From: Clostridia bacterium
GTDB lineage: Bacteria; Bacillota; Clostridia; Christensenellales; CAG-138
Assembly (NCBI GenBank): GCA_016292635.1
Contig: JAEDIC010000001.1
Coordinates: 3,275 to 67,274, forward strand
DNA: 64,000 nt
Reading direction: 5' to 3'
Positions 16,508 through 63,765 of this stretch are shown piece after piece (the first letter of the stretch is position 1; each line of letters starts with the position of its first letter). The position numbers were made by a program, and so were the translations under genes. Below the pieces are notes generated by a model. It was not told the DNA's origin. It did not search any database and saw nothing but the letters and a program-made list of their open reading frames with translations.

Positions 16508-16510
16508 TGC

Positions 16511-29013: not shown

Positions 29014-29168
29014 GGATATATATATACTTTGTTAATCTAATAATTATCAACTGATCGAACACATATTTTATATATATATCGTGCTCTCATATTGAACTTG
29101 TATTGTTGATAATGCACCCGCAATATCATAGATGTCCCAAAAACTTTTATAGGAGAAAGGAACTGCTT

Positions 29169-37951: not shown

Positions 37952-38004
37952 GATAAAAAAATACCATAACACATTTGTCAATGTATTAACATATCAACAT
38001 TCCG

Positions 38005-38188
38005 ATTCCTCCTCCCTAAAGCGTTTTTGCCACGGGAGCCGGAACGATAGGGTGCGGAGGGAAACCGCCGTTGCCTGCCGGTGCGCAAAGGGACTGTTTT
38101 TTGGCATATGTCGGGTTCATTTTAGCTTTTATTCCAGCTGTTGATCCCATATGTGCCCTGCGCCGCAAAAGGCGCTTTTATTTTTATT
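38005..38188 (+). promoter_or_regulatory. candidate Moco/Tuco riboswitch with terminator expression platform
   Basis: Structured leader CCTCCTCCC...GGGAGCCGG...CGGAGGGAAACCG...CCTGCCGG...CAAAGGGA. An intrinsic terminator GCGCC-gcaaaa-GGCGC plus TTTTATTTTTATT follows (38160-38188), 50 nt before the first gene of a moa operon. The motif match is from memory of the Moco RNA consensus. Confidence 0.5.
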
Positions 38189-40091: not shown

Positions 40092-40093
40092 AT

Positions 40094-42144: not shown

Positions 42145-42227
42145 GGTATTGAAAAGAATTTCTGAATAAAGCATAATACCATTGGGCGGAGCCTTCCGCC
42201 CAATGACGACTTTTGGGAGGTTACATA

Positions 42228-48473: not shown

Positions 48474-50330
48474 ATGAAGAAGATTCTGTCTCTAACCCTG
48501 GTTCTGGCAATGGCGCTGTCTCTTGCGGCATGTGCGGCTCCCGTTGAGGAAACCGTTCCCGCGGAGGAGGTACCTGCCGAGGCTCCCGCAGAACCCGAAG
48601 TTGACTCTCAGGCCATACTGGCCGAACTTAAGACGCCCGCTGAGGAAAGCAACTGGGAACGTACCACCTCCTCACAGGAAGTGATCGATTTCCTTGAAAT
48701 TGTGGCAGAGCATAGCGGCGGCCGTATCATTCTGGATACCACCACTTTTGCAACTGAATTCGGCACTCCCATTCCTTACATGATCGTTAGCGACGTGGCC
48801 CCCTCCACCCCCGCTGATGTTCCCGAAGATAAGGGAGTGGTATATGTAAACGCCAATATCCACTCCGGAGAAATTGAGGGTAAGGAAGCAATGCTGATCT
48901 TTGCCCGTGAAGTTGCGCAGGGTATGCACGACGAGCTGCTGAAGGATCTGGTGGTTATTATCGTTCCCAACAACAGCCCCGACGGCAACGACGCTCTTGA
49001 CAAGAACCGTATCAATACCCAGTTCACCCCTAAACTGGTCGGTACCCGTCCCGAGGGCAACGGTTTCAACATCAACCGCGACATGACCAAGCTGGAGACC
49101 GCCTGCGCTCGCACCATCGTTCAGCTGATGAATGACTGGAACCCCATCCTCTTCATCGACTGCCATGCAACCGACGGCAGCTATATGCGTCATGCCGTAA
49201 CCTATAACTGGGGTCTCAACGCCGGTACCGATGCTGAGCTCCTCGCTTACAACCGGGATGTATTCTGCTCCCGCGCTCTGCGTGAAGGCTCCTACCTGGC
49301 CTCCAAGGGCAAGGTAGCCGTTCCTTACGGCAACTGGGGCTTCTACTACAGCGGCATCGTTGAAGAAGGCTGGCGTACCTTTGAAGACTACGCCCGCTAT
49401 ACCACCAACTACGCGGGCCTGCGCAACCGTCTGGCGTTGCTGCTTGAAGTATACTCCTATGATGAGTTCTCCGTCCGCGTTGACACCCAGTATGAGTGCG
49501 TTTACGGCGCTCTGCAGGTTGTAGCGCAGGATAAGGACGAGATCAAAGCCATGATTGCCGCAGCCGATGCCCGCTCCGAAGCCCGCGCCACCGATGGCAT
49601 CGACCCCGAGACCGACATCGTTGCCCTGAACTCCGAAATGACCCCCATGCCCTTCGAAGGCAAGGACACCCTCACCGTTCTCTCCTATGAGACCGATGAA
49701 AACGGCCTGGTAATCGGCGAGCGTCTGTATGACGACGAAGGCGATCCCTACGCAATCGAGCACGGCGAGCCCGTTGACTACGAGACCGAGTACTGGGGAA
49801 CCTTTATCCCCACCGATGTTGAGACCATGGGCGCATATTACCTCATCGATCAGGACTGCGCAGAGTTTATTGAGCTCATGCAGTTCCATGGCGTTGAAAT
49901 GACCCAGCTTACAGAAGACCTTACCCTCAGCGGCGATAAGTATCTCCACTTCGGCATTGAATCCTACACCAGCGGCGGCGCCGTTATCGACGGCAAAGAG
50001 CGCAAAGAATACGAAGGCCACTATCAGACCCTCGTGACCGGTGAGTGGGAAGAAGGCGACAAGGAAATCGTGATCCCCGCCGGCACCTATGTAATATCCA
50101 CTGCCCAGCGCTTCGGCTCCTTCGCAGCCCTTATGTGCGAGCCTGCAGCAGTTGACGGCGGCGTAGCCTGGAACTTCTTCGATAACTACTTTGATGCCAA
50201 GGAAGGCACCTTCCGCGCCAACTACAGCAACAACGTTATCGCTGCAGCCGGTTCCGAAAACGAACGTGAGGAGCAGGTATGCATCCCCATCCTCAAGATC
50301 CCCGCTTTCGATACCATCACCATCGGTTAA
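48474..50330 (+). CDS. M14-family zinc carboxypeptidase-like lipoprotein
   Basis: 618 aa. Lipobox LSLAAC and an acidic/Pro-rich linker. Zinc motif NANIHSGEIEG (HxxE) and a later IDCHATDG His. Confidence 0.75.
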   Translation: MKKILSLTLVLAMALSLAACAAPVEETVPAEEVPAEAPAEPEVDSQAILAELKTPAEESNWERTTSSQEVIDFLEIVAEHSGGRIILDTTTFATEFGTPIPYMIVSDVAPSTPADVPEDKGVVYVNANIHSGEIEGKEAMLIFAREVAQGMHDELLKDLVVIIVPNNSPDGNDALDKNRINTQFTPKLVGTRPEGNGFNINRDMTKLETACARTIVQLMNDWNPILFIDCHATDGSYMRHAVTYNWGLNAGTDAELLAYNRDVFCSRALREGSYLASKGKVAVPYGNWGFYYSGIVEEGWRTFEDYARYTTNYAGLRNRLALLLEVYSYDEFSVRVDTQYECVYGALQVVAQDKDEIKAMIAAADARSEARATDGIDPETDIVALNSEMTPMPFEGKDTLTVLSYETDENGLVIGERLYDDEGDPYAIEHGEPVDYETEYWGTFIPTDVETMGAYYLIDQDCAEFIELMQFHGVEMTQLTEDLTLSGDKYLHFGIESYTSGGAVIDGKERKEYEGHYQTLVTGEWEEGDKEIVIPAGTYVISTAQRFGSFAALMCEPAAVDGGVAWNFFDNYFDAKEGTFRANYSNNVIAAAGSENEREEQVCIPILKIPAFDTITIG

Positions 50331-50371
50331 ACAGATCCTGAACCCTTGAACCGGGAAAACGAAAAAAAACG

Positions 50372-50402
50372 GCACATATCCCTTTGGATATGTGCTGTTT
50401 TT
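50372..50402 (+). terminator. intrinsic terminator after the M14 peptidase gene
   Basis: GCACATATCC-cttt-GGATATGTGC followed by TGTTTTT. Confidence 0.8.
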
Positions 50403-50670
50403 GCAGTATGGGGCTTTTCCCTTGCAAAACCGCATAGCCGGGAGCCCATTCGAAATCATCCGGAAAGCCTTAGCCGAGCTTCCCTGTCGCCGCAGGATCA
50501 GACTTTTCCGCAATGTACAGCGCCAGACTGCGACGGCTGCATGACGGCATAATTTACAAACGAGAACAGGTTAAGCCTGCCAGATATGGTAACAAGCTCT
50601 ACGCCTGCGCATAACTCAAATATCCCCCCGAAGCTTTACGGGGGGATGAAGCCGTGTAGGTTATTTGGCT

Positions 50671-51735
50671 TTATAGCTTATATATACCTTTTTCCATTAT
50701 CATCTTGCCATCCACATATACGGCGCCCTCATGTCTGAGGTCTTTGACGATATCCCAGTGGAGCGCGGAATCATTTAAGCCGCCGCATTTAGGATAGCCG
50801 CGGCCCATTGCCAAATGTATGGTGCCGCCGATTTTTTCGTCGTAAAGTATATCGTAGCAATAGCGGTTGATGCCGCTGTTGAGGCCTATTCCGAATTCGC
50901 CTACTCGGCAGGCGCCCTCATCCATGTGAAGAATAGTATCCAGGAATTCGCCTTCAGTTTCGGAAGAATAATCAATCAGCTTTCCGTTTTCAAATCTCAG
51001 CCTTATTCCCTGAATCACCTTGCCTGCGTATACTCCGGGGAATTCAAAGTAAATATGACCGTTTATACTGTCCTCAACGGGCGAGGTAAACAGCTCTCCA
51101 TCCGGCATATTGCAGTGACCGTCGGCTATCTCATACTCTCTGCCCTTTGTAGAGAAGGTGATATCCGTTTCCTTGCCTGTGATGCGCACGGTAGTACCGG
51201 AAGTATACAGTTTCTTGATTTTTTCAAGATATTCCAGCTGAGAGTTCCAGTCCACCAACGTAGACGCAAAATAGAAATCCATCATATCGTCCAAAGGCAT
51301 GTTGGCCTGCTGCGCAAAGGATTCATTCGGCACTCTGGACAATACCCAACGGGTACGGTTTCGTCTTGCGGATATCACTCCCATGGAATGCTTGTGAAGC
51401 GACAGTACGTCTGAAGGTATGCCGTCAAATTCGGCCGGATTGCGGGCGCCGCGCAGGCCGATATAACAGTCTGCCCAGTCCATGCCCGCAAGGTGCATAT
51501 CGTTTACCCATTCCACCTGCTCTTTGCTGCCCAGCGTCATTATGTCTTTTTCCAAATATGCCGACTGAAACTCAATAAACGGCAGACCTCCGACGCGAAC
51601 CGCCTCCTGATAGCAGGCCCTGGCGAGAGGCCATGTTTCGATCTCCATCATTGTTATCAGCAGCTTCTCGCCCTTTTTAAGGCCTACAGAATAGTTCACC
51701 AACACCTTTGCAAGCTCACTCCATCTTTTATCCAT
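50671..51735 (-). CDS. M29-family aminopeptidase (AmpS/PepS-like)
   Basis: 354 aa. MDKRWSELAKVLVNYSVGLKKGEKLLI start and GGTIHLAMGRGYP metal-site region are typical of M29 thermophilic-metalloprotease-family aminopeptidases. Confidence 0.8.
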   Translation of the reverse strand: MDKRWSELAKVLVNYSVGLKKGEKLLITMMEIETWPLARACYQEAVRVGGLPFIEFQSAYLEKDIMTLGSKEQVEWVNDMHLAGMDWADCYIGLRGARNPAEFDGIPSDVLSLHKHSMGVISARRNRTRWVLSRVPNESFAQQANMPLDDMMDFYFASTLVDWNSQLEYLEKIKKLYTSGTTVRITGKETDITFSTKGREYEIADGHCNMPDGELFTSPVEDSINGHIYFEFPGVYAGKVIQGIRLRFENGKLIDYSSETEGEFLDTILHMDEGACRVGEFGIGLNSGINRYCYDILYDEKIGGTIHLAMGRGYPKCGGLNDSALHWDIVKDLRHEGAVYVDGKMIMEKGIYKL

Positions 51736-51753
51736 AGCCTGTACCTCTTTCGC

Positions 51754-52710
51754 TTATTTGGTGTTCCAGTTGATTAGCTTCTGTACCATCCGCCTGCTCA
51801 TATGGTCCGGATCCATCATGCCTGCTACGCTGCCGGTGGAGATAACGCCGTTTTCAGTGATTATTCCGCTAATAAGTTTGGGCGGTATCAGCTCAAAGGA
51901 AACGTTAGCTATCCTGCATCCCTCGGGAACAGCCATATCAGATACCTCGTCTGAAGGCCTGGAGCTATCCTTGAGAGGAAAGCCCAGCATGGATAGCAGG
52001 TCAAACTTACTGGTATCCGCCGCCACATAGAAGGGAACGGAAAATTCCTGGCAGGCCAGCGCGGCAAGGTATGAGCCCATCTTTGCATATACCTGACCGA
52101 TTGAAGTAATGGCATCGGCGCCTATTATGAAAATATCGGACTTGGGCAGCAGGTCAGTAATTGCGGCATCGGTGCCGAGGGTTACCGGGAAGCCCAGTTC
52201 AGCCACCTCTTTAAAAGTGCGGTAGCCTTCATTATGCGGCCTTGCTTCATGGCAGGTGACGGAGATATGCTTGCCTGCGTCCTTTACCTTTTGCAGTATG
52301 GACATTACAGAGCCGCTTGTGGAAAAGGTGGAAAACTTAGCGCCGTCGGGCACCATTTTTTCGCCTACCTCGCCTATGCGGTCAAGGCAGGAAGCCTGCT
52401 CTTTTCTGCGCTTTTCCAGCATTTCACAGGCTTTGTCCACAGTTTCTTCGACGGAAAGGCCGATGTTTTCGTTTTCTTCTACAAAGCTCATGCAGATATT
52501 TAGCAGGTTTATGAGTGGCAGTATGGGGCTGCACACCTCAAGGGTAGCGTCTACGTTGTGCTCAATGTTTTTGAATACATCCTCAGCGGAGGCAAACTTT
52601 CCTGAGCGCAGTTCATTTACATAGCAAAGTATGGCGTCATCCACCAGCTCCGCACTTCCACCATAAGCATCCTTGCTTACTTTCATTGTGAATTCATCGA
52701 TTAACAGCAT
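51754..52710 (-). CDS. eIF-2B alpha/beta/delta family protein (sugar-phosphate isomerase-like), paralog 1
   Basis: 318 aa. TFSTSGSVMSIL, CHEARPHNEGYRT, IIGADAITSIGQVYAKMGSYLAALAC and FYVAADTSKFD follow the IF-2B/MtnA/ribose-1,5-bisphosphate isomerase family pattern. Confidence 0.7.
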   Translation of the reverse strand: MLLIDEFTMKVSKDAYGGSAELVDDAILCYVNELRSGKFASAEDVFKNIEHNVDATLEVCSPILPLINLLNICMSFVEENENIGLSVEETVDKACEMLEKRRKEQASCLDRIGEVGEKMVPDGAKFSTFSTSGSVMSILQKVKDAGKHISVTCHEARPHNEGYRTFKEVAELGFPVTLGTDAAITDLLPKSDIFIIGADAITSIGQVYAKMGSYLAALACQEFSVPFYVAADTSKFDLLSMLGFPLKDSSRPSDEVSDMAVPEGCRIANVSFELIPPKLISGIITENGVISTGSVAGMMDPDHMSRRMVQKLINWNTK

Positions 52711-52736
52711 ATATACCCTCCTGTTTTATAATGTTT

Positions 52737-53198
52737 CTACTTTTCCATGCACCACATTATGGCATCCACTATTTTCTGATATCCGGTACAGCGGCATAGA
52801 TTCCCCTCGATAGCTCTTCGCACCTCCTGCGGCGTTCGGCATTTTTTCTGGCGCAGTATTGACACTCCCGTCATTACCATGCCAGGCGTGCAGTAGCCGC
52901 ATTGCGCAGCTCCAAAGGCCGCCAGAGCCTTCATCATTTTCTCGGCTGTGGGGTCTCCTCGCAGTCCTTCTATAGTAGTAACTTCGTGACCGTTTAAGCT
53001 GCAAACAGCCACCAGGCAAGAATTGACCGTTTTACCGTCCAGCATTACCGTGCACGCCCCGCACTCTCCTTCCCTGCAGGATTCTTTTGTACCTGTAAGG
53101 TGCAGCTTATCCCGCAAGAGGTCTATCAGCATCATCTGGGACGGTACGTCTACCGATATATGATTACCATTCAGTATAAACTGTACATTCTGCATCAT
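52737..53198 (-). CDS. [2Fe-2S]-binding small subunit of a xanthine dehydrogenase-family molybdoenzyme
   Basis: 153 aa. CREGECGACTV and CGYCTPGMVM...CRCTGY clusters. Confidence 0.9.
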   Translation of the reverse strand: MMQNVQFILNGNHISVDVPSQMMLIDLLRDKLHLTGTKESCREGECGACTVMLDGKTVNSCLVAVCSLNGHEVTTIEGLRGDPTAEKMMKALAAFGAAQCGYCTPGMVMTGVSILRQKKCRTPQEVRRAIEGNLCRCTGYQKIVDAIMWCMEK

Positions 53199-54049
53199 AA
53201 GCTTACCTCCAGCAGCTGCTCCAGGTTTCGCGCAAGTATGTTCCTAATGACCTTCATACGGTATTCGGCAGTGGCGCGAATATCGTCTATTGGGGTGCAT
53301 CGGGAGAGCATGGCCTGCACTGCGCCGGGGATATCGCCTTTTTCGGCCATCCTTTCCCCGTCGGCGTTCACTACTGTTTTAGAACTCATGGAGCCTAGCG
53401 CAATATGCACCTGACCTGTATTCTCCACAAGTATGGCGGCACTGGCCACCGATATTGCCATAGCAGAACGAAGGCCAACCTTTTCATATACATACCTGCT
53501 GCCGATATATGCAGGCATTTTAAAGCGCAGCAGCAGCTCATCGGGCCTTCTCAAGGTTTTTCGGGGCCCTATCACCAGCTGTGCGACCGGTATACTTCTC
53601 GTGCAAACCTCACCGTCTTCTTTATGGGCCAATACCGCCGTCGCTCCCAGGCACACCAGCGCAGTTAGGGCATCTCCCGCCGGACTTGCGTTCATTACGT
53701 TTCCGCCCACCGTGGCAACGGCCCTTATCTGTGGGCTGGCTATTTTCAGTGACGCATCAACAAGCAGAGGCGCAGCCTCCTTTATAAGGTCAGAATCTAT
53801 AATATCTGAGAACGTACAGCCAGCGCCCACGGACAGCACGCCTTGCTCCAAAGTTATCTCAGCGAGTTCAGGCAGTTCTCTTATGCACATCAGAGTTTCG
53901 CTTATCACGGGTGTCTTTGGATGCAGCCGAGCCGCAACAAAAAGGTCCGTGCCTCCTCCAGATACCGTAACATGCTCACCCTGCTCCGCAAGCAACGACA
54001 AGGCCTCGTCAAGTGAGCGGGGACATAATATTCGTTCGCACCCTATCAT
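53195..54049 (-). CDS. FAD-binding medium subunit of a xanthine dehydrogenase-family molybdoenzyme
   Basis: 284 aa. GGGTDLFV and ATVGGNVMNASPAGD motifs (CO dehydrogenase flavoprotein/FAD_binding_5 type). It overlaps both neighbouring genes by 4 nt. Confidence 0.88.
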   Translation of the reverse strand: MIGCERILCPRSLDEALSLLAEQGEHVTVSGGGTDLFVAARLHPKTPVISETLMCIRELPELAEITLEQGVLSVGAGCTFSDIIDSDLIKEAAPLLVDASLKIASPQIRAVATVGGNVMNASPAGDALTALVCLGATAVLAHKEDGEVCTRSIPVAQLVIGPRKTLRRPDELLLRFKMPAYIGSRYVYEKVGLRSAMAISVASAAILVENTGQVHIALGSMSSKTVVNADGERMAEKGDIPGAVQAMLSRCTPIDDIRATAEYRMKVIRNILARNLEQLLEVSL

Positions 54050-55527
54050 GATAAGCTCCTTTCCACAGCCTGCCTGAATTCTTCAAGCGCCTTTTTGCCC
54101 GCCGTGTATTCCGCATACGCCCGTTGGTAATACGCCGTAGCCTCAGCGTTTCGCGGAACAGGCCGCTCCTCGTCTCTTACACAGGCAGCAATAGCTCCAG
54201 CTCCATCCTGGTACAACCCAACGCCCAGGCCCGCTGTCATGGCGGCGCCCAGCAAACTATCCGCCACGGCACGGCGGCCGTTAATATCCAACACGTCGCA
54301 TACTATAGATCGCCAAAGCGGGCTTTTCATGCCCCCTCCGGTAAGCTTTATGTCGTTCCATGGATAGCCCATATTGCGGAAGAGGCTGCCCATATCCTTA
54401 AGTGCAAAGGCCAGCCCCTCAAATATGGCGCGAGCGCAGTCACCCCGGGTATGGTGGCGGCCCATCCCCATGAAGCAGGCTTCCGGCTTCTCCGTAGCGC
54501 TTGGCGAACCCCGCCCCAAAAGCCATGGATAGAATACTATTCCTCGGGCACCTGTCCCGCTTTTCTCCGCCTCCTCATTAAATATGTTCAGCCTGTTCTT
54601 AGGTGCGCAGTCGCCGTATGACATGTCCAGAAACCACTGCACAGTGTCTCCGGCGGTTTTTGTAAACCCGCCTGCCACATATTTGCCTTCCAAATAGGGC
54701 CAGCAAAACATTGAATGCTCATACATGAACTTGCCGGGCAGCTTTTTCTCCAGCACTACCCTGGCTATGCCATTGGTGCTCACACTTACGGCGCCGCTTC
54801 CCGGCGTCAGCGTACCTGCCCCAAACATGGCGGCTGCGCCGTCGTTAAGTCCGCAAACCACCGGCGTTCCCGCCTTAAGCCCGGTTTTCTCTGCGACTTC
54901 CTTGCTAAGGCCGCCCGCTACCGCTGTAGACGGCAATATTTCGTCCATCATTTCCTCTGAAAGGCCGCAGATGCCCAGCATGGACTTGTCCCACTTCACA
55001 TTTCCGGCGCTTGATGAGGGCTCGGTCACAAATCTGCCAGTAAGAAAGTGTAATAGAAATCCCTTAATATCGTGTATGTGACTTATTTTTCCAACCATAT
55101 CCGGCCACTGACCCAGTGACCATCTCAACCTTGCCGCAAATCCCGTCTGCGGCATGCCGTGGCCGACCCAGTCATAACCTATTTCCTCAAAAAGCTTGTA
55201 TCCCTCAGAGGCGCAACGGTTATCCTGCCATATCGCCACGGGGCACAGGGACGCGCCGTGTTTATCTACAAATACGACGCCAGGCCCATGAGCCGACACA
55301 CCTATTGCGGCCACGTCCATTTCTCCGTCCATATGCCGTGCCGCATCGGCAAGAACGCCTGTTATGGCGCTTATCCAGTCTCCCGGCTGCTGCTGCGCCC
55401 CATTGGGAATGGAGTGATCTGTTTCAACGGGCCTGGAGGCCACTATCAACTGTTTTCCGTCTAGGCTGTATACGGCGCACTTGCACAGGGTCGTACCCAG
55501 ATCCAGCCCCATTATTACAGGCCTCAT
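54046..55527 (-). CDS. FGGY-family carbohydrate kinase
   Basis: Start is MRPVIMGLDLGTT at 55527, an ATGA overlap with the upstream stop. FGGY N- and C-domain patterns (GVSAHGPGVVFVD, LTGGGMKSPLWRSIVCDVL). Confidence 0.88.
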   Translation of the reverse strand: MRPVIMGLDLGTTLCKCAVYSLDGKQLIVASRPVETDHSIPNGAQQQPGDWISAITGVLADAARHMDGEMDVAAIGVSAHGPGVVFVDKHGASLCPVAIWQDNRCASEGYKLFEEIGYDWVGHGMPQTGFAARLRWSLGQWPDMVGKISHIHDIKGFLLHFLTGRFVTEPSSSAGNVKWDKSMLGICGLSEEMMDEILPSTAVAGGLSKEVAEKTGLKAGTPVVCGLNDGAAAMFGAGTLTPGSGAVSVSTNGIARVVLEKKLPGKFMYEHSMFCWPYLEGKYVAGGFTKTAGDTVQWFLDMSYGDCAPKNRLNIFNEEAEKSGTGARGIVFYPWLLGRGSPSATEKPEACFMGMGRHHTRGDCARAIFEGLAFALKDMGSLFRNMGYPWNDIKLTGGGMKSPLWRSIVCDVLDINGRRAVADSLLGAAMTAGLGVGLYQDGAGAIAACVRDEERPVPRNAEATAYYQRAYAEYTAGKKALEEFRQAVERSLS

Positions 55528-57731
55528 ATTTCGCCTCTCCTTTTTTCCAGGGCAAGCAGCACCTTGTCCGGCGACGCGGGCAAGTCGGTTATCCATATTC
55601 CGGCAGCGTCGTGTATTGCTGCTATGACTGCGGGGGCCGCTGCGGTTATGGCCAGCTCTGCAAGACCCTTTGTGTGGATGTAGCCGGCGTCAGCCGGCTT
55701 ATCAATGAATTTTACGCTGATGTTCGGAGCGTCTGAAGCGGTCGGAAACAGGTAATCCGAAAAGCCATGCTGCAAAGGCCTTCCGTCTTTTTGCATGAAG
55801 TTTTCCATAAGAGCCATTCCCAGACCCTGTGTAGCCGCGCCCTGCACCTGTCCTTCGGCGCCTGTTTGGTTTATCACGGTGCCGCAATCGCAGACTATGG
55901 AAAGATCCAATACGCGAACCATGCCAGTATCTATATCCACCAATACCTCTGCGCGCTGTATATCGTAGCCGTACTGATTTACCGGATATCCGTGCCCATT
56001 ATCATCGGGGGCAGATGTGAGCGGCGGCATATATGAAGCATGAACCTCCATGCCCGCACCCTTTTCCTCAAGCCAGGCAGCCAGCTCAGGCCCGCTTTGC
56101 GGGCCGCCTGCCGCGCATATTTTCTCCTTTAATCTGATGGCAGCGAGATAAGCCGCATTGCCGGTTGTACTTGTCTGACGAGATGCGCCAGACGGACCTC
56201 CCTCCGGATACCGGGTGTTAGGCCGGCAGTACCTTATCCTATCCACAGGATAGCCATTCATTACCCTGGATACAATTAACGACAACGTGGTTTCCAAACC
56301 CTGGCCCAGGTCGTTCGCGCAGGTCATTATCTCGATTATCCCGCCGGACACAACGCTAAGCTTTACCGTAGATTCATCATTATGACCAAAGTGGAGGTTA
56401 CAGCCTTGAGACGCCCCGGCGTACCCTACTCCATAAAGGTAGCGAGGAGATACGGCATCCTTGTGCAAAGGCAATTTACTCACCTTTTCAATACATTCAT
56501 CATACCTGGCACAGGGTGGAACCAAATGCTCCGACAGCGTATGGTCGCCGTCGCGTATAGCGTTGACCGAGCGTATATCGAGCTGGCTCATTCCCAGCCG
56601 CTCTGCCGCCATTCCCATCATGCACTCGTTTGCGAAGGTGATGCCTGTCATTCCCCAGGAGCGCATCGCGCCCATTGCCACGCCGTTTGTGTAGTAGACC
56701 TTGGTGTCCACCCTTACATTGGGCATACGATAAGGGCCGCAAGCATTGACCGAAATGAATTTGGCTATATTCTCTCCGTGATGAGAAGAAGATCCGGTAT
56801 TCAACCGCACCCAGTAATGCGCGCCCAGTATCCTGCCCTTCTCATCAAAGCCCATACGGACGTCAATTTCCTGTCCATGGCGCTTTGTATGGAATACCAT
56901 TTCTTCATCCCGATCAATATATACGCGCACCGAGCGCTTCGCATAGAAAGCTAAAAGAGCAGCATAGGACGCTATCAGCCCATCGTCCTTTCCGCCGAAA
57001 GAGCCTCCCATAAAAGGCAGCTCTACATGCACCTTATCCAACGGCATGTTTAATACCGCCGCAAGTATCTCCCGCTCATAAGTAACCGTGTGACAACCCA
57101 GGCGAACATCTAATGAACCATCGTCATTGAAGCGGGCTATGGCACAGTCGTTTTCCAGGTAACAATGCTCAATCGGCGGAAGAGTAAAGCTGTGCTCCAC
57201 GCACACCGGAGCGCCGGCAATAGCATCGTCTGCGTTGCCCGTAGAGTAATTATACTCTCGCAGCAAGTTGGAGTCCCGCACCATGTCCGGCCGCGCCCTG
57301 GGGCTATCCGGCAACACAGCTTCGCTCAGCTCATACACCGCAGGCAGCTCAACATATTGCACATCCACCGCCTCTGCCGCAGCCCTGGCCTGCTCTTTTG
57401 TCTCCGCCGCCACAAGGGCGACGGCATCATATGCACCGTATGTCTCCTCATCGCACAGAATGGGCTGATCCATCACGGTTTTTCCAATACGATTCTCCCC
57501 GGGAATATCTCCGGCTGTGACCACCGCGTGAACGCCGTCCATATTACGGGCAGCCGAAACGTCTATCTTCAGTATTCGACACCTTGGCACCGGCGCACGC
57601 ACTATAACGCCTTCCAGCGTTCCAGGCCACTTTATGTCACTTACAAACACTGCGGAGCCATCTGCCTTAGGCATGCATGTATGCATATGGGCTCGCATCA
57701 GTTCATCGGCAAACAAATCTTTCTGCTGCAT
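55524..57731 (-). CDS. molybdopterin-binding large subunit of a xanthine dehydrogenase/aldehyde oxidase-family enzyme
   Basis: 735 aa. a/b-hammerhead N-terminus and Mo-binding domains (GGSFGGKD, GQGLETTL). C-terminal KGLAELAI carries the family Glu. Confidence 0.9.
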   Translation of the reverse strand: MQQKDLFADELMRAHMHTCMPKADGSAVFVSDIKWPGTLEGVIVRAPVPRCRILKIDVSAARNMDGVHAVVTAGDIPGENRIGKTVMDQPILCDEETYGAYDAVALVAAETKEQARAAAEAVDVQYVELPAVYELSEAVLPDSPRARPDMVRDSNLLREYNYSTGNADDAIAGAPVCVEHSFTLPPIEHCYLENDCAIARFNDDGSLDVRLGCHTVTYEREILAAVLNMPLDKVHVELPFMGGSFGGKDDGLIASYAALLAFYAKRSVRVYIDRDEEMVFHTKRHGQEIDVRMGFDEKGRILGAHYWVRLNTGSSSHHGENIAKFISVNACGPYRMPNVRVDTKVYYTNGVAMGAMRSWGMTGITFANECMMGMAAERLGMSQLDIRSVNAIRDGDHTLSEHLVPPCARYDECIEKVSKLPLHKDAVSPRYLYGVGYAGASQGCNLHFGHNDESTVKLSVVSGGIIEIMTCANDLGQGLETTLSLIVSRVMNGYPVDRIRYCRPNTRYPEGGPSGASRQTSTTGNAAYLAAIRLKEKICAAGGPQSGPELAAWLEEKGAGMEVHASYMPPLTSAPDDNGHGYPVNQYGYDIQRAEVLVDIDTGMVRVLDLSIVCDCGTVINQTGAEGQVQGAATQGLGMALMENFMQKDGRPLQHGFSDYLFPTASDAPNISVKFIDKPADAGYIHTKGLAELAITAAAPAVIAAIHDAAGIWITDLPASPDKVLLALEKRRGEI

Positions 57732-57747
57732 ATTGACGCTTGTCCTT

Positions 57748-58572
57748 TCATTCCTTCACTCCGCCTGAGGTCAATCCAGATATGATGGATTTCTGTATGA
57801 AAATAAACAGGATTATTATAGGAACGCTGGCTATTACCGAAGTAGTGAGCAGACTCGCATAATCCACAGAAAACTGACCTATGGTAGAAGCTATCTTCGC
57901 GGTTATAAGCTGTTTTGAAGTAGAGCTAATAAAGGTTATAGCAAACAAGTATTCATTCCATGCCATGATAAAAACATAGGTGAATGTTGCCACCAGTCCA
58001 GGCAGTGCCATGGGCAACGATATGCGGAATATGGTTCCCATGCGGGTCAAACCGTCCACCATTCCGCTTTCTTCTACCTGAACGGGAATTGAATCTATAA
58101 CCGATATGCTGTTCCACACCGCAAATGGTAGGTTCAGCATTGTGTTTGCCAGAATTATCGGCACAAAGCTATCATACAGCCCCAGCTTTACCACCCAAAC
58201 AAATAGAGCTATAGCCAGCAGCAGCGCCGGGAATGTACGCAAGCACATAAATATGCTCATTAGAAAGCTGCGCCCTTTGAATTCAAACCTGGAAAAACCA
58301 TAGGCTGTTGTCACAGCTATTACCTCTGTAAGCAGGGCCGCTGAAAAAGAACAGAGAACGGAGTTTCCTATTGAGCGCATGGACGATGAGTCGCTGAAAA
58401 CCTTGATATAATTCTCCAGCGTAAACTTCTGAGGAAATATAGAGCTTGCAAAGGTGTCTCCGCTTCCTCTGAAAGTATTGATAAGCATCCACAGGTATGG
58501 CGTAAACAGCACGGCAACTATCAAAGTCGCTATAGTATACAGCGCTATTCTCTTTATGGTTTTACTTTTCAT
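57748..58572 (-). CDS. carbohydrate ABC transporter permease (MalG-like, CUT1)
   Basis: Start is MKSKTIKR at 58572, after AAGGAGTGATCTGT. An alternative GTG at 58581 overlaps the upstream stop. Six TM helices, with EAA-like loop VEESGMVDGLTRMGTIFRISLPM. Confidence 0.88.
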   Translation of the reverse strand: MKSKTIKRIALYTIATLIVAVLFTPYLWMLINTFRGSGDTFASSIFPQKFTLENYIKVFSDSSSMRSIGNSVLCSFSAALLTEVIAVTTAYGFSRFEFKGRSFLMSIFMCLRTFPALLLAIALFVWVVKLGLYDSFVPIILANTMLNLPFAVWNSISVIDSIPVQVEESGMVDGLTRMGTIFRISLPMALPGLVATFTYVFIMAWNEYLFAITFISSTSKQLITAKIASTIGQFSVDYASLLTTSVIASVPIIILFIFIQKSIISGLTSGGVKE

Positions 58573-58577
58573 ACAGA

Positions 58578-59468
58578 TCACTCCTTGTTCATGCGACGAA
58601 GCACCACAACAGAAAACACCACCGCTACCAGGAACATTATCACGCCTATTGCCGAAGCTTGGCCGAACTGATAGCTGTTAAACGCAGTACGGTACGCATA
58701 TGTTGCGAGCACCTCCGTAGAATAAAGAGGGCCGCCCTCTGTCATTATCCAGGTAAGATCCATATATGTAAACGTCGCGCAGAAATTGAACAGCATCAGC
58801 GTAAGAAGGTTATTTTTAAGTATCGGCAGCGTTATGCGGAAAAACTGCTGTCTTCCGTTAGCGCCGTCTATGATAGCCGCCTCATAAAGATTTTCATTGA
58901 TTGCCTGCAGCGAGGCTAGCAAGGAAAGGAAGTAAAACGGCATATACATATACACATTTGTCAAAATAATTGTAAGTAGCGCCGTCTTAGTGCTCCCCAA
59001 TGGGTCAAACACTATGCTTGAGCACAGCTTTTGCAGTATTTGGGCAATTGGCCCTATTTGCGGATGCAGCATGACCTTGGCCATTACCGCCACTACTGTG
59101 GGAGACAGCGCCCAGGAAACCAGCACTATTGTGCGCGTGACACGCAGATAGCGTATATTCAGGCATTTTTGATTCAGAAGCACCGCCAGCGCCAAACCTA
59201 CAGAAAGGTTCAGCAGCATAACGACTCCGGCATACACAAAGCTTTGCCCCGTAATCTGCCAGAACCTCGTATTGGAGAATACTTTTATAAAGTTCTCTAA
59301 GCCTATAAATGACGGGTCTATTGCTATACCTTTTCCCGATGAGAAAAAGGCAAGGTATATAACAAACGCGGCGGGATATACCGCCATTATCATAAAGAAA
59401 AGCACACCGGGCGAAGAGAATAGATAACCCGCATTTATTTTTTTACCAAATATTCTTATATCCTGCAT
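58578..59468 (-). CDS. carbohydrate ABC transporter permease (MalF-like, CUT1)
   Basis: 296 aa. EAA loop YEAAIIDGANGRQQFFRITLP. Confidence 0.88.
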   Translation of the reverse strand: MQDIRIFGKKINAGYLFSSPGVLFFMIMAVYPAAFVIYLAFFSSGKGIAIDPSFIGLENFIKVFSNTRFWQITGQSFVYAGVVMLLNLSVGLALAVLLNQKCLNIRYLRVTRTIVLVSWALSPTVVAVMAKVMLHPQIGPIAQILQKLCSSIVFDPLGSTKTALLTIILTNVYMYMPFYFLSLLASLQAINENLYEAAIIDGANGRQQFFRITLPILKNNLLTLMLFNFCATFTYMDLTWIMTEGGPLYSTEVLATYAYRTAFNSYQFGQASAIGVIMFLVAVVFSVVVLRRMNKE

Positions 59469-59590
59469 ATTTTGTAAAACCTCAATTTTCGTCTGGCGGC
59501 TTTTGTTCGCCTATGGACATTTGGGAATCAAGTTCAATTTTGCGGGGCGCTTTTTGCAGAGCGCCCCGCAGACCAGTTTAGCTAAAGATA

Positions 59591-60892
59591 TTAGCCGCCA
59601 TAGTACTCGTCAAGTATAACGTTCCACTCCTCGGCCATAGCATTCAGGGCAGCCATAGGCTCCATCTCACCCATGTATACAGCCTGGATATATCCACGCA
59701 TTATGGAGTTGAGCGCATCGGAATCAGGATAATGATTGGCTACTATAGTACCGGGATCCCTCAGCTGCTGCAGCTTCATCTTATAATCCTGAGTATTGTA
59801 GTAATCCGTATCGGCAGTCTCAGACAGAGGAGATACCTGACCGAACTGCTCGCACCAGTAATTGAGGGAGTCATCGCTGGTCATGAATTCAATGAATCGC
59901 CAAGCGGCTTCCTTGTTGTCGCTCTTGGAAGACATACCGAGAGCGGTGCCGCCCGCCAGGGAACCGGAAGTGACGCCAGTGGGCATGGGCAGGGCAACTA
60001 TCTCATAGTTATCGCCGGCCTTCTGCTGGATGGTGCTCTGGAACCAGGGGCCATCAGAGAACAGCGCCAGCTTGCCGGAGGCCATCAGCTCGCCCTGCTG
60101 ATCCACGTTGGTAGAAGCGATGCTGGGAGGAATTATGCCAGCATCTATCATGGACAGGATATACTCGAACGCAGCCACGCCTGCCTCATTATTGAAGGCG
60201 GCCTTATTGTTTTCGTCTATGAGCTCGCAGCCGGCCTGCAACAGCACGGACTGGAACTGCCATTCTGTACCGGTGTCACTGGAGTCGCCACAGATGGAGT
60301 AGCCGTACACGCCGTTTGCAGGGTCAGTCAGCTGCTCGGCTATTGCATAGAACTCGTTCCAAGTCCAGCCATCGTAAGGCAGTTCTATGCCCGCCTGCTC
60401 AAACAGTGTGGCATTAGCAAACATTACGGAGCAACCACTGCGGTAAGGTATGGCATAAATGTGGCCTTCCCACTCGCCGTAGCCTTGGCCGGCCTCAGTG
60501 AAGCGGGACTTGAAGCTATCTATGTCTATGAATTCATCCAGCTCTGCAGCCAGGCCGTTTGTTGCTGCGGATATGGTCCAGAAGGTCATATAAACATCAG
60601 GCGCTGCATTTGCCTCGGTTTGCAGAACAAGCTGATCATAAGTATCGTTTGCAGCTACTTCGTTTACCTCAACCTTTATGTCGGGGTTTTCCTCCTCGAA
60701 TTTCTCAATCAGAGTGTACATGCACTCAGGAGAACCTGCCTGGGCCATAAAGGTGATGGTAGTTACATCGCCTGCTTGTCCTGCGGCAGCCGTACCACTG
60801 CCAGAATCTGCTGCGGCATTTGGCTGAGCCGAGCAGGCAACAGCACTGAATGCCAATACGGCAATCAGCAACAATGACATCAATTTCTTCAT
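59591..60892 (-). CDS. extracellular solute-binding lipoprotein (family 1, sugar type)
   Basis: 433 aa. Lipobox FSAVACS, with an SBP_bac_1-like body. Confidence 0.85.
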   Translation of the reverse strand: MKKLMSLLLIAVLAFSAVACSAQPNAAADSGSGTAAAGQAGDVTTITFMAQAGSPECMYTLIEKFEEENPDIKVEVNEVAANDTYDQLVLQTEANAAPDVYMTFWTISAATNGLAAELDEFIDIDSFKSRFTEAGQGYGEWEGHIYAIPYRSGCSVMFANATLFEQAGIELPYDGWTWNEFYAIAEQLTDPANGVYGYSICGDSSDTGTEWQFQSVLLQAGCELIDENNKAAFNNEAGVAAFEYILSMIDAGIIPPSIASTNVDQQGELMASGKLALFSDGPWFQSTIQQKAGDNYEIVALPMPTGVTSGSLAGGTALGMSSKSDNKEAAWRFIEFMTSDDSLNYWCEQFGQVSPLSETADTDYYNTQDYKMKLQQLRDPGTIVANHYPDSDALNSIMRGYIQAVYMGEMEPMAALNAMAEEWNVILDEYYGG

Positions 60893-60984
60893 AGGGTTTA
60901 CCTCCTTAATTGATTATAATGCTTACCGCAGACCTGACGGCAACCGTATTGTTTCACTCAGGTGGTTACGATAGCAATCTTTAA

Positions 60985-61866
60985 TTACCTTGAAATACAG
61001 CTCAACAAATAGCCGCTCACTCTTTTCGATGTAAAGTGCGATGATGCTTCGGGTGATATGATGCCGTTTTCTGTTATTACTCCCGATATATAGCGTGCAG
61101 GCGTCACGTCAAAATAACACGCAGATATGCTTCCTGCCGGAATAGAAACTTCACGAATTAGATTTGATACGCATTGCAATGGTCCCGGAAGCAGTTTTTC
61201 ACATCCGGCGTAAATGTACACCGGTACGCTTCTTCTGTGGCACCAATATGCCATTGTACTCTGCCCTACCTTACCTATTACACTTCCGTTGGGCAATACG
61301 GCTTCACACCCAAACAGAGCAATATCGGCCTCATCGGCCGCCTTGCGCATATCTGCATCAAGTGTTGCCCGGCAGGGTATCCCTTGCTTTGAAAGCAACC
61401 GTACGGTATCCAGCCCATCTTTGTTTGGGCCGGACTCTGTAACTATAACGGAAAAATCCAGCCCCAATGCTTTGCATCGGCTCAGGCAGCTGCTGACAGT
61501 TTGGCTGAAAGTGAATGTACAGACATTCTTTCGTCCTGCAATCAACCTGCACGCAATTGACCGCATTCGCTCAGCTGTATCTTCCCGGCTCCACGCCTCG
61601 CATACCGGGCGTATTGCTTCTTCCTTGCCTTCCAGTAAAAGGCAGAAGCGATTTATGGAATTTACCAGCGGAGCGTATGGCGGCATTACTTTACAAATAT
61701 CCTCTACGGCTTTTAATGCCGCCGTACAAAACTCTTCCCTGCAAGAAAAGCTCTGCTCATACGCTTTCATGGCCAAATCAAACATTTGGGCGCTTTGCGT
61801 CGCGTGCAGGCGATAATTAGCCAAGCCTTGTATCAGGCTCTCCAGTTCTGCATAAGCCGCCCTCAT
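60985..61866 (-). CDS. eIF-2B family protein, divergent paralog 2
   Basis: 293 aa. VIVTESGPNKDGLDT, LFGCEAVLPNGSVIGKVGQSTMAYWC, VPVYIYAGCEKL and FDVTPARYISGVITENG follow the IF-2B family core. Confidence 0.65.
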   Translation of the reverse strand: MRAAYAELESLIQGLANYRLHATQSAQMFDLAMKAYEQSFSCREEFCTAALKAVEDICKVMPPYAPLVNSINRFCLLLEGKEEAIRPVCEAWSREDTAERMRSIACRLIAGRKNVCTFTFSQTVSSCLSRCKALGLDFSVIVTESGPNKDGLDTVRLLSKQGIPCRATLDADMRKAADEADIALFGCEAVLPNGSVIGKVGQSTMAYWCHRRSVPVYIYAGCEKLLPGPLQCVSNLIREVSIPAGSISACYFDVTPARYISGVITENGIISPEASSHFTSKRVSGYLLSCISR

Positions 61867-61869
61867 GAG

Positions 61870-62682
61870 CTATATCCTGCTGCGGAAGCTGCGCACCTTA
61901 TCCATAAAGCGCAGTACCCGCTCCTTGTCCACGGCATTTTCAAATATGCCGTCCACTTTGAATGTTGTACCAACTACAGCTCCGTCGGCCACGCTAAGCT
62001 GCTTTTCAATATTTTCAAGGCGACAGCCGGTATTGGCAAACACTACTGTGTTTGGAACCATGCTCTTTACATTTTTAAGCAGCTGGTTGTCGGTTTCTTC
62101 GCCCGCGGTCAAGCCTGAAACGCAAAGCGCGTCGGCCTTGCAATTGAAAACTGTGGTCTTGGCTATCTGGGCAGTATCTCTGTTCGCAAGGTATCGTGCG
62201 GCTTCGGGTACAATATTGAAAAGAAGCTTAACGTTTTCTCCGCCAACGGCCATACGATGCCTTGACACCTCGCCGTAGTTAGTGTTCCACAGACCAAAGT
62301 CACTGGCATATACGCCGGTGAATATTTCGCGTACAAACTTTGCGCCGGTAGCTACCGCTATATCTATTGACGCTCCTCCATCCCACAGGGCATTGACGCC
62401 GAAGGGAATTTTTATTTCAGGCAACAGCTGACCTATTATGCGCGCCATTGCAGCAACGGTCTCCTTACGAACGTCGGTAAGATATGGAAGGCTGAACTCA
62501 TTGGAAAACATTACCGCATCGACGCCGCCCTCCTGAAGGGCCATAAAGTCCTTATATGCCTGCTCCACTACCCACTCCATGCCTTTTTCCTTGGAGTATC
62601 CCGGGTCTCCCGGCAGGGGTTGCAAATGGCACATGGCAATTACCGCTTTTTCAGTACCGATAACGTCTTTTAACCAGCTCAT
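61870..62682 (-). CDS. BtpA/SgcQ family TIM-barrel protein
   Basis: 270 aa. AVIAMCHLQPLPGDPGY, GGVDAVMFSNEFSLPY, PFGVNALWD, FVREIFTG and VFANTG follow the BtpA family pattern. Confidence 0.75.
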   Translation of the reverse strand: MSWLKDVIGTEKAVIAMCHLQPLPGDPGYSKEKGMEWVVEQAYKDFMALQEGGVDAVMFSNEFSLPYLTDVRKETVAAMARIIGQLLPEIKIPFGVNALWDGGASIDIAVATGAKFVREIFTGVYASDFGLWNTNYGEVSRHRMAVGGENVKLLFNIVPEAARYLANRDTAQIAKTTVFNCKADALCVSGLTAGEETDNQLLKNVKSMVPNTVVFANTGCRLENIEKQLSVADGAVVGTTFKVDGIFENAVDKERVLRFMDKVRSFRSRI

Positions 62683-62943
62683 TTCGAGTCCTCCTGGATA
62701 TAATTATTATTTGCGAGGTATTGCAAATCGATTGCTCAGGATAAATAGATTAGTTAGTTTCGTTTTTGTGCTTTTAATGTTACCAATTATATCATTCTGC
62801 CTTATGATTCGCAATATTATATTTCGTTTCATTACAAATCGTAACTTTATTGTTTCATTATTTTGTCAATTGAATTGACTTTATGTTAATTGTATGGCAA
62901 TATGTAAATAAGGAATTAACGACATTGGAGTTTGTTATTGGCT

Positions 62944-63765
62944 ATGAGAAAAGCGGAGCGTTTACTGCAGCTTCAGGAAATACTTATAAGTAAAAACGAG
63001 GTTCTTGTTGAGGATCTTGCCTCACAGTTTGGCGTTTCCTGCGTGACCATACGAAAAGATTTAAACGAATTGGAAAGCCAGGGTTATGTGCAGCGTACAT
63101 ACGGCGGCGCGGTGATCAAGCAGCAGGGAATCCACTCCTTCTTCCCGCGCTCCATAATTCGCAGCGAAATACTAAACTTCAGCCAGGATAAACGCTACAT
63201 CGCCACCATAGCCCAGCAGCTGGTGCATGACGGAGACAATGTTTTTTTAGGCTGCGGCGACACCTGCGCCGCCATAGCCCAGGCGCTGCTTAACCACAAG
63301 GCCAACTTTGTTACCAATAACATATTGGTTGCCGCTATTCTTTCTACAAACCCTCACGCGGTGGTTCGCGTCACAGGCGGCACCCTCAGTGGCTACGACA
63401 GGCATTTTCTGAGCGGCGATCTGTTTACCCGCTCAATGGAAAACATATATTTTAAATATGCCTTTTTGGGGGCTGCCGGCGCTGATATTCACAATGGTTT
63501 TACCACATATTCCGACTTCGAGCATAGCGTATGCGATACTGTGCGCGCAGTATCAGACACACTCGTATTTGCCCTCGGCTCTTCAAAGTTTGGAAAAACC
63601 AACTTTATGCATATTGGAAATCTTAATGTAGCTGACCTGATAATTACAGATGCCGGAATACCGGACGAGTACCAGCAGTACTTTGACCGCCACGGCATAA
63701 CGGTGCTTACCTCTGTCAATAAGCTCCAGTTAATGCCGAGGCACAACACGGATATTTCGGTTTAG
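62944..63765 (+). CDS. DeoR/GlpR-family transcriptional regulator
   Basis: ATG at 62944. The track starts at TTG 62932. HTH VEDLASQFGVSCVTIRKDLNELESQGYVQRTYGGAV and a DeoR C-terminal sugar-phosphate sensor domain. It is divergent from the 11-gene operon. Confidence 0.88.
   Translation: MRKAERLLQLQEILISKNEVLVEDLASQFGVSCVTIRKDLNELESQGYVQRTYGGAVIKQQGIHSFFPRSIIRSEILNFSQDKRYIATIAQQLVHDGDNVFLGCGDTCAAIAQALLNHKANFVTNNILVAAILSTNPHAVVRVTGGTLSGYDRHFLSGDLFTRSMENIYFKYAFLGAAGADIHNGFTTYSDFEHSVCDTVRAVSDTLVFALGSSKFGKTNFMHIGNLNVADLIITDAGIPDEYQQYFDRHGITVLTSVNKLQLMPRHNTDISV

Follow-up and report, generated by a model that had tools for sequence, protein, structure and literature searches.

Eleven minus-strand genes in a 64,000-nucleotide (nt) stretch of DNA from an uncultured gut Clostridia bacterium of the CAG-138 group (assembly GCA_016292635.1, contig JAEDIC010000001.1, positions 3,275 to 67,274), called the window below, bring together a CUT1-type ATP-binding cassette (ABC) importer, an FGGY-family sugar kinase, a three-subunit molybdenum (Mo) enzyme of the xanthine dehydrogenase (XDH) family, two IF-2B-family proteins (IF2B1 and IF2B2), a BtpA/SgcQ-family protein and an M29-type aminopeptidase-like protein. 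Judged from their layout and from related loci, these co-directional genes and a divergent DeoR-family regulator gene are one operon-like, conserved unit. On balance we favor the reading that this unit is controlled by DeoR and serves the catabolism of a carbohydrate derivative taken up by the cell, with an exchangeable front end and a conserved back end. Gene content, operon-like packing, conservation, modularity and the states of active-site residues were read directly, and from them we infer the chemical steps and the nature of the substrate.

Gene content

The products of all eleven genes could be placed in families by Pfam and NCBIfam. An earlier note on this DNA, made from the letters alone, had listed eleven minus-strand genes from 62682 down to 50671 with their families, as well as a divergent DeoR gene; the open reading frame (ORF) list and both family databases bear this out. 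Positions are those of the window, lengths are in amino acids (aa), and the short names are those used below.

50671-51735, minus: M29, a short, cytoplasmic metallo-aminopeptidase-like protein, 354 aa; Peptidase_M29 (PF02073, 203 bits)
51754-52710, minus: IF2B1, 318 aa, Ser/Asp type; IF-2B (PF01008, 152 bits)
52737-53198, minus: [2Fe-2S] small subunit (FeS), 153 aa; Fer2 and Fer2_2
53195-54049, minus: flavin adenine dinucleotide (FAD)-binding medium subunit (FAD), 284 aa; FAD_binding_5 and CO_deh_flav_C
54046-55596, minus: FGGY sugar kinase; FGGY_N and FGGY_C; 493 aa (54046-55527) with the ATG start of public gene callers
55524-57731, minus: Mo-binding large subunit (MoL), XDH family, 735 aa; Ald_Xan_dh_C and MoCoBD_1/2
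57748-58581, minus: ABC permease 2, 274 aa (ATG at 58572, as in gene callers) or 277 aa (GTG at 58581); BPD_transp_1
58578-59468, minus: ABC permease 1, 296 aa; BPD_transp_1
59591-60892, minus: CUT1 solute-binding lipoprotein (SBP), 433 aa; SBP_bac_1/SBP_bac_8, with a lipoprotein-like signal ending at Cys20
60985-61866, minus: IF2B2, 293 aa, Thr/Glu type; IF-2B (PF01008, 105 bits)
61870-62682, minus: BtpA/SgcQ-family protein (BtpA), a phosphate-binding-type TIM barrel, 270 aa; TIGR00259, 323 bits vs a cut-off of 153
62932-63765, plus, divergent from the operon: DeoR-family regulator; HTH_DeoR and DeoRC domains; 273 aa if started near 62944 instead

Conservation and modularity

Near-identical copies of the window cluster lie on many metagenome contigs. 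Other relatives, on contigs and in metagenome-assembled genomes (MAGs), fall into the following types.

Type A (L014, L015, L016, L018, L022): all 11 genes, in the order of the window
Type B (Anaerolineae L017, L020, L032, L033, L035): DeoR-BtpA-IF2B1-IF2B2-M29-SBP-permease-permease-MoL-FGGY-FAD-FeS
Type C (L021/L030, a Clostridiales MAG): DeoR / BtpA-SBP-permease-permease-IF2B1-M29 plus a kinase, without the Mo enzyme and without IF2B2
Type D (L028, L031, L044): DeoR-BtpA-luciferase-like oxidoreductase-permease-SBP-permease-FGGY-IF2B1-M29

Identity to the window proteins is only 41-81% for the components of three type A loci (L014, L016 and L018), the other two being closer (up to 89%), and M29 within this type is up to 86-89% identical. 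Type A flanks vary, with frequent transposases. Type B proteins are 29-64% identical to the window's. The eleven genes, M29 included, thus stay together despite rearrangement and in two phyla, which argues that they are one selected unit; the single unit that the earlier note had proposed is therefore upheld by the same 11 genes in two orders. IF2B2 itself is rare: a word-indexed search gave 8 relatives, and an exhaustive HMMER search of 1.84 billion proteins yielded only 6 representative clusters at E<=1e-30.

The smaller relatives (types C and D) came from a profile search with IF2B1 and from one metagenome scan. BtpA (58-78% pairwise identity between types), M29 (53-72%) and IF2B1 (29-68%) are orthologous in all types, and the binding protein, kinase and oxidoreductase vary jointly from type to type. 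The type C kinase, for example, clears the ribulokinase equivalog cut-offs (607 vs 428 bits), and the SBP and FGGY proteins of type D differ from those of the window, at about 20-25% identity. IF2B1 occurs in all types, mostly adjoining M29; IF2B2 was seen only alongside the Mo enzyme, and the order MoL-FGGY-FAD-FeS is constant in every Mo-containing locus. Within the Anaerolineae, IF2B1 proteins that are 71% identical occupy one type B and one type D locus, from which it follows that modules have been swapped within a lineage.

The cluster was found on a human-gut metagenome contig (L025) and in MAGs of Clostridia and Anaerolineae, and its type D relative L028 on a sediment metagenome contig. 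A tblastn search of PLSDB with IF2B1 recovered ordinary MtnA genes alone, at about 32% identity, and no copy of the cluster. In the searchable literature neither the cluster nor a matching characterized pathway was found, in line with what the earlier note had supposed for this combination.

Esterase genes recur near the BtpA/IF2B1/M29 core, a hint at O-acylation of some of the substrates. Among the three type D loci, two carry a gene for a CE7 acetyl esterase, the acetyl-xylan-esterase type (L028 8313-9275, L031 18056-19093). An alpha/beta-hydrolase esterase (L021 3962-4867) also adjoins the type C cluster.

Among the type A loci, the L015 copy (9185-20448) has a recombinase gene and transposase genes of the IS21 and IS110 types on its flanks, and IS elements also flank L014 and L018. 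Three L015 genes look shortened (BtpA 236 aa, permease 2 240 aa, M29 166 aa), and this copy may be decaying or recently moved.

Packing and control signals

Where the genes of the operon are separated, the gaps are 3, 92, 122, 16, 26 and 18 nt. With the kinase start at 55527, overlaps of 4 nt occur between MoL and FGGY, FGGY and FAD, and FAD and FeS; the earlier note had counted three such overlaps and gaps of at most about 120 nt. The junction between permeases 1 and 2 is a 4-nt overlap or a 5-nt gap depending on the start of permease 2 (GTG at 58581 or ATG at 58572). The signals around and within the unit are as follows.

62683-62931: divergent control region, 249 nt, AT-rich, with a promoter-like site and short repeats that are candidate operators
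59541-59570, minus: GC-rich hairpin, 11-bp stem, without a U tract, just 3' of the SBP gene in the 122-nt gap
50622-50647, minus: terminator-like hairpin closing the unit, 9-bp stem (7 GC) followed by AUUUGAGUUA; the sole good one at the operon end

The promoter-like site in the divergent region is TTGCGA-17-TGnTATAAT, with an extended -10, at 62814-62786 on the minus strand; the direct repeat GTTTCATTA lies at 62826-62834 and 62852-62860, and BtpA has AGGAGG as ribosome-binding site in front of its ATG. For the regulator itself the top NCBIfam match is AgaR (158 bits), under its cut-off. In BtpA loci of no relation to the cluster, as well as in types A, C and D, a DeoR-family gene adjoins BtpA, and those type B loci that reach upstream of BtpA also carry one there.

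Of the earlier note's statement that no terminator precedes the operon end, the end hairpin stands and the GC-rich hairpin behind the SBP gene had been overlooked. The 122-nt gap that holds it folds at -36.1 kcal/mol (z-score -3.2). It is possible that this hairpin is an attenuator or an mRNA stabilizer, which could lift SBP expression over that of the downstream genes. Hairpins behind the SBP gene are usual in ABC operons and, as far as such signals can be read, this one does not argue against a single transcript.

This hairpin, together with the 92- and 122-nt gaps, which could hide internal signals, is what could be said for chance adjacency, that is, for a sugar importer, a Mo dehydrogenase and a peptidase that merely lie side by side and form no single unit. 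Against it, the full set is kept in two orders and two phyla with differing flanks and with mobile elements nearby, and the kinase appears translationally coupled within the Mo gene set. Since the set is conserved through rearrangement, we regard chance adjacency as effectively excluded.

Two IF-2B proteins with remodeled active sites

The reference for the IF-2B proteins was PH0208, a ribose-1,5-bisphosphate isomerase (R15Pi) in which Cys135 and Asp204 are catalytic and the C135S variant is inactive (PMC5789824). Arg22, Arg65, Gln166 and Lys215 bind the 1-phosphate, and Ser137 and Lys240 the 5-phosphate; the catalytic Cys corresponds to Cys133 in Tk-R15Pi (PMC5789824). Residues of the window proteins were mapped to PH0208 through gap-free HMMER alignments and family alignments.

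Cys135: Ser130 in IF2B1, Thr119 in IF2B2
Asp204: Asp199 in IF2B1, Glu188 in IF2B2
Gln166: Glu161 in IF2B1, Asp150 in IF2B2
Arg65: Cys60 in IF2B1 (Thr in Anaerolineae); position not mapped in IF2B2
Ser137: Ser132 in IF2B1, Ser121 in IF2B2
Lys215: Lys210 in IF2B1, Lys199 in IF2B2
Lys240: Lys235 in IF2B1, Lys224 in IF2B2

Apart from the Arg65 position, these states are invariant in both phyla. Scores are likewise far from the characterized families: the ribulose_e2b2 equivalog gives 135 bits for IF2B1 and 90 for IF2B2 vs a cut-off of 314, and the salvage_mtnA equivalog 101 and 36 bits vs 279. By these residues both paralogs would retain the sugar and terminal-phosphate half-site, without the catalytic thiol and with a 1-phosphate pocket that has become partly acidic. 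Because the catalytic Cys and 1-phosphate binders are replaced, both fall outside the MtnA/R15Pi functional class, and neither can be, on this alignment, a canonical ribose-1-phosphate-type isomerase. An IF-2B branch with a replaced Cys and a changed 1-phosphate pocket points to new chemistry or to a new ligand.

Alternatively, the two paralogs could be no enzymes but sugar-phosphate sensors, acting as regulators or scaffolds for the Mo enzyme, the kinase or M29. In that case the catalytic steps would fall to the kinase, BtpA, M29 and the Mo enzyme. The loss of Cys with retention of phosphate and sugar binders recalls eIF2B-alpha, for which a similar residue pattern has been described and a sugar-5-phosphate ligand proposed (PMC5789824), and which is reported to bind sugar phosphates (PMC8187479); in addition, IF2B2 strictly accompanies the Mo enzyme. 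Against such a role, Asp199 is invariant in IF2B1, pocket-lining motifs are strongly conserved across phyla, and two dedicated non-catalytic subunits are rare in catabolic operons. We consider this role unlikely.

The Mo enzyme as a probable accessory oxidation module

MoL scores under all NCBIfam equivalog cut-offs, those of PucD, XdhA and XdhB included, the best being PucD at 426 bits. Its motifs GGSFGGKDDG, HTKRH, GAMRxWG, GASRQ and KGxAE are invariant in 10 homologs, and Glu692 of the last is assigned as the C-terminal catalytic Glu by motif rather than by residue-numbered alignment. When aligned with Rhodobacter capsulatus XDH, Glu232 (bovine Glu802) is Asp249 in MoL and Arg310 (bovine Arg880) is Phe325, which is invariant in the cluster homologs. 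The Arg of HTKRH had been considered as the Arg880 equivalent and was ruled out by this numbered alignment. Among solved structures the nearest relatives are Desulfovibrio gigas aldehyde oxidoreductase, which is closest, 4-hydroxybenzoyl-CoA reductase and nicotinate dehydrogenase. With the purine-orienting Arg replaced by an invariant Phe, MoL is not expected to be a purine hydroxylase, and we take it, from its motifs, for an active-looking dehydrogenase. It would be an accessory oxidation step, given that type C lacks it and type D has a flavoenzyme instead.

These residues bear on the scheme of the earlier note, in which a riboside or glycoside is imported, its ribose is phosphorylated and isomerized by the IF-2B proteins, and the Mo enzyme hydroxylates an N-heterocyclic aglycone. 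Membership of both paralogs in PF01008, the XDH-family architecture, the best NCBIfam score of MoL to PucD and the acidic Asp249 kept at the Glu802 position all speak for it. Isomerization of the ribose-1-phosphate type is nonetheless not supported: neither paralog has the catalytic Cys, each has an acidic residue for the Gln, and IF2B1 also lacks the 1-phosphate Arg (Cys60 instead). The cluster moreover has no nucleosidase or phosphorylase that would make a sugar-1-phosphate, FGGY kinases act on terminal hydroxyls, and CUT1 importers are not the usual importers of nucleosides. Hydroxylation of an N-heterocyclic aglycone is weakened by the invariant Phe at the Arg880 position, by the missed equivalog cut-offs, by the lack of a nucleosidase or phosphorylase and by the absence or exchange of the Mo module in sister clusters. 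Taken as a whole this scheme is distinctly unlikely. Two of the earlier suggestions fare better: oxidation of an aldehyde by the Mo enzyme is compatible with what we found, and a glycated amino compound as substrate is mildly favored.

In two of the Anaerolineae loci (L017, 6614-8847; L020, 16264-18503), MoL is divided between two ORFs of about 421 and 323 aa that overlap. The split falls between the two MoCoBD domains; L032 and L033 have one ORF.

From its gene content this genome can probably make Mo cofactor (Moco), with the genes lying within 13-25 kb of the operon, in an island at 25.5-43.6 kb of the window. The island includes two MoeA genes, at 25525-26748 and, with a fused PBP-like domain, at 26753-28660, as well as genes for NuoE/NuoF-like subunits (29103-31540), FdhD (33437-34174) and a MobA-like nucleotidyl transferase (34197-34856) adjoining a formate-dehydrogenase-type enzyme of the bis-molybdopterin guanine dinucleotide class (34857-37535). 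A riboswitch of the Moco (molybdenum/tungsten cofactor) class on the plus strand (37988-38109, 54.7 bits vs a gathering score of 36) lies directly ahead of plus-strand cofactor genes, namely MoaA (38659-39609), MogA/MOSC (39998-41026) and a molybdate/tungstate-type ABC system (41107-43567). Control of the cluster by a Moco riboswitch was rejected, this being the sole one in the window. Among the genes of the cluster Pfam and NCBIfam identified no ABC ATPase, XdhC or MocA, as the earlier note had stated, the MobA-like transferase lying elsewhere in the window; nor was an XdhC-type chaperone seen among the cofactor and Mo-enzyme genes of the window.

BtpA, M29, the kinase and the importer

BtpA belongs clearly to its family (PF03437, 306 bits vs 30) and misses the photosystem I BtpA equivalog (146 vs 400 bits). 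It evolves slowly, being 58-78% identical across all cluster types and sgc-like loci and about 74% identical to the proteins of Brevibacillus and Thermoanaerobacterium, the latter from an sgc-like locus, and a homology search gave more than 7,000 relatives. Searches by sequence found no match in the PDB, and no second Pfam family appeared even at E<=10. The AlphaFold2 model is a confident TIM barrel (predicted local distance difference test score 89.8), whose Foldseek neighbors, at a template modeling (TM) score of only about 0.6, are generic phosphate-binding barrels: PcrB/GGGPS, 2-keto-3-deoxy-6-phosphogluconate (KDPG) aldolase, HisF/HisA/PriA and NanE. Its invariant Lys residues are K5, K12 and K242, none of which is on an inner strand as in class I aldolases.

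An aldolase role for BtpA would belong to a dihydroxyacetone phosphate (DHAP) shunt or 5-deoxyribose-type disposal route, where a 5-substituted pentose is phosphorylated, the IF-2B proteins isomerize it, BtpA cleaves it and the Mo enzyme turns the aldehyde so released into an acid by oxidation. The logic of kinase, IF-2B isomerase and aldolase is known for methylthioribose and 5-deoxyribose, KDPG aldolase is among the fold neighbors of BtpA, and among solved structures it is the D. gigas aldehyde oxidoreductase that comes closest to the Mo enzyme. Several features count against this route: the IF-2B proteins have a remodeled 1-phosphate site and no catalytic Cys, the kinase is FGGY and not of the MtnK/DrdK type, the inner strands of BtpA are without an invariant Lys and its TM similarity to aldolases is only modest, and type C, without the Mo enzyme, would leave the aldehyde untreated. 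We therefore see it as very unlikely.

All M29 metal ligands (Glu214, Glu280, His307, His326 and Asp328) are invariant across cluster types. For the FGGY kinase the best equivalog is XylB (245 bits vs a cut-off of 380) and the best PDB matches are gluconate kinase 3gbt and xylulokinase 2itm, so the window kinase may be called xylulokinase- or gluconokinase-like, with scores under the cut-offs. The nearest solved structures of the SBP are generic sugar binders that indicate no ligand. Sharing of an ATPase, e.g., MsmX, among CUT1 importers is common in Firmicutes.

A few genes lie close to the unit. Past the right end of the window in the same genome (L001, 1-7688) a response-regulator gene adjoins the DeoR gene, and beyond it lie genes for an M19 dipeptidase, for a complete peptide ABC importer of the Opp type and for an S15 X-Pro dipeptidyl peptidase; in other genomes the cluster does not have such a peptide-uptake unit beside it. 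At the opposite end, a 618-aa plus-strand ORF (48474-50330), convergent with the operon end, has a weak match to M14 carboxypeptidases (E = 3.9e-7). A long opposite-strand ORF (48672-50513) matches no family and is unlikely to be a real gene. Farther off in the window, a ribosomal protein L10 leader on the minus strand (13674-13804, 59 bits vs a gathering score of 44) places the rplJ/rplL region there.

Proposed pathway

In the reading we favor, a catabolic operon for an imported carbohydrate derivative, the front end would consist of the CUT1 importer, the Mo/FAD/[2Fe-2S] dehydrogenase, the nested kinase and IF2B2, and the back end of BtpA, IF2B1 and M29 acting in the cytoplasm on a terminally phosphorylated sugar. 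The imported compound is taken to be a sugar derivative because a CUT1 binder, a DeoR regulator and an FGGY kinase occur together, and a gene outside the cluster would provide the importer ATPase. Either the imported compound or an early intermediate may then be oxidized by the Mo enzyme at an aldehyde- or aldose-type carbon, with oxygen from water, and the nested FGGY kinase would phosphorylate the product at a terminal hydroxyl. Terminal phosphorylation by an FGGY kinase fits the terminal-phosphate site kept in both IF-2B proteins. IF2B1 would bind, and probably isomerize at C1-C2, a pentose- or pentulose-5-phosphate-like compound. Since the 1-phosphate binders are lost and Gln166 is now Glu, the C1 group of this ligand would be other than phosphate and may be cationic, plausibly N-linked. 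BtpA would transform the phosphosugar on its way to the pentose phosphate pathway, and M29 may hydrolyze an aminoacyl or amide bond in substrate or product.

These steps can be taken further, to a candidate assignment for the core. BtpA/SgcQ, a Ser-type IF-2B and M29 (or M42) might form a deglycation-type route for N-linked pentose or pentulose conjugates, an idea with an outside chance of being right. Its substrates would be, e.g., amino acids or peptides that carry the sugar as an Amadori or glycosylamine-type adduct. After terminal phosphorylation of the ketose or pentose, the IF-2B protein or the BtpA barrel would carry out a C1-C2 isomerization, the nitrogen analogue of the reaction from ribose-1-phosphate to ribulose-1-phosphate, whereupon the amine would be freed and the pentose phosphate would enter central metabolism. 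The Mo dehydrogenase would contribute a water-dependent oxidation, for which a luciferase-like flavoenzyme may do the same in other lineages. If true, this would be the first function for the BtpA/SgcQ family, E. coli SgcQ included, and would explain the frequent aminopeptidases in orphan sugar operons.

Several points weigh against a catabolic operon with a common back end. The Ser/Thr IF-2B proteins could be non-catalytic binders like eIF2B-alpha, and M29 could be merely a co-regulated peptidase. Kinases and SBPs differ between types, so that a common intermediate is an assumption. Few precedents are known for Mo enzymes of the XDH branch oxidizing sugars (archaeal glyceraldehyde oxidoreductase and Mo-dependent deoxyribose dehydrogenase). 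Moreover, the comparative evidence consists throughout of MAG and metagenome contigs, and two pattern scans of 185,579 species-representative genomes gave no confirmed relative, an absence that is suggestive at most as the motifs (TFSQT and GCE for IF2B2, AELVDDAI and TCHEARPH for IF2B1) had to be present as exact peptides.

Whatever its substrate, the cluster ties the uncharacterized BtpA/SgcQ family and the orphan sgc operon to fixed partners, a non-canonical IF-2B and an aminopeptidase-like metalloenzyme, and places an XDH-family enzyme in a sugar operon as an exchangeable module. Its spread over gut, sediment, Clostridia and Anaerolineae suggests that the substrate may be a common compound that has escaped notice in diet, plant matter or microbial debris. 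The cluster is a clean lead for pathway discovery, and ready comparisons are offered by the natural loci that have the Mo enzyme, a flavoenzyme or neither of them.

Comparison with known systems

The closest parallel is the E. coli sgc operon (sgcR, the sgcA/B/C phosphotransferase system (PTS), sgcE, sgcQ and sgcX), which is induced on nitrogen-containing carbon sources and whose substrate and biochemistry were still unknown in 2026 (PMC13343008). Both systems have BtpA/SgcQ and DeoR, a phosphorylation-linked uptake and a dinuclear-metal 'aminopeptidase'. They differ in that the window has a CUT1 importer and FGGY kinase, not a PTS, and M29, not M42, which has an unrelated fold; it also lacks a ribulose-phosphate epimerase and adds two IF-2B proteins and a Mo dehydrogenase. 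BtpA has comparable neighbors in other loci: that of Thermoanaerobacterium has a PTS, an M42 peptidase and a ribulose-phosphate epimerase, that of Brevibacillus brevis DeoR, FGGY, M42 and a CUT2 ABC importer, and a third DeoR, a HAD protein, FGGY and an amidohydrolase. BtpA is thus recurrently accompanied by DeoR, a phosphorylating uptake step and a dinuclear-metal aminopeptidase-like protein (M42 or M29), and the alternation of M42 and M29 beside it looks like non-homologous replacement of one function, as far as gene neighborhoods can tell.

A functional analogy can be drawn with the frl Amadori operons (B. subtilis frlBONMD, E. coli frlABCDR), which work by a kinase plus a deglycase. Shared with them would be a CUT1 importer without its own ATPase gene, a sugar kinase, a putative amine-freeing step of the C1-C2 isomerase type and a local repressor. 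Unlike them, the window has no SIS-domain deglycase and no PfkB kinase, and what suggests the analogy is solely the acidic C1 pocket of the IF-2B proteins and the peptidase partner.

At the level of single enzymes, the window IF-2B proteins share with R15Pi, MtnA and the 5-deoxyribose-1-phosphate isomerases (DrdI) the PF01008 fold, the conserved Ser and two Lys and, in IF2B1, the Asp. They depart from these enzymes by Ser or Thr for Cys, by Glu or Asp for Gln166, by Cys or Thr for Arg65 in IF2B1 and by Glu for Asp in IF2B2. The Mo enzyme has the three-subunit arrangement of D. gigas aldehyde oxidoreductase, nicotinate dehydrogenase, 4-hydroxybenzoyl-CoA reductase, PucCDE/XdhABC and archaeal glyceraldehyde oxidoreductase, with the Mo-site motifs and C-terminal catalytic Glu motif of XDH-family dehydrogenases, and the large subunit split in some Anaerolineae resembles two-chain nicotinate dehydrogenase. 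It differs from these dehydrogenases by the FGGY gene between its subunit genes, by its sugar-operon setting and by Phe at the Arg position.

The overall design, with a repressor, an ABC importer, a kinase and downstream enzymes, is ordinary, and each gene belongs to a known superfamily; it is the combination that is undescribed in the searchable literature. Three core proteins are without an assigned reaction, and the two IF-2B proteins, by their predicted active sites, fail the defining features of their nearest functional class. We therefore place the cluster as an uncharacterized carbohydrate-derivative catabolic operon and not as a new kind of system.

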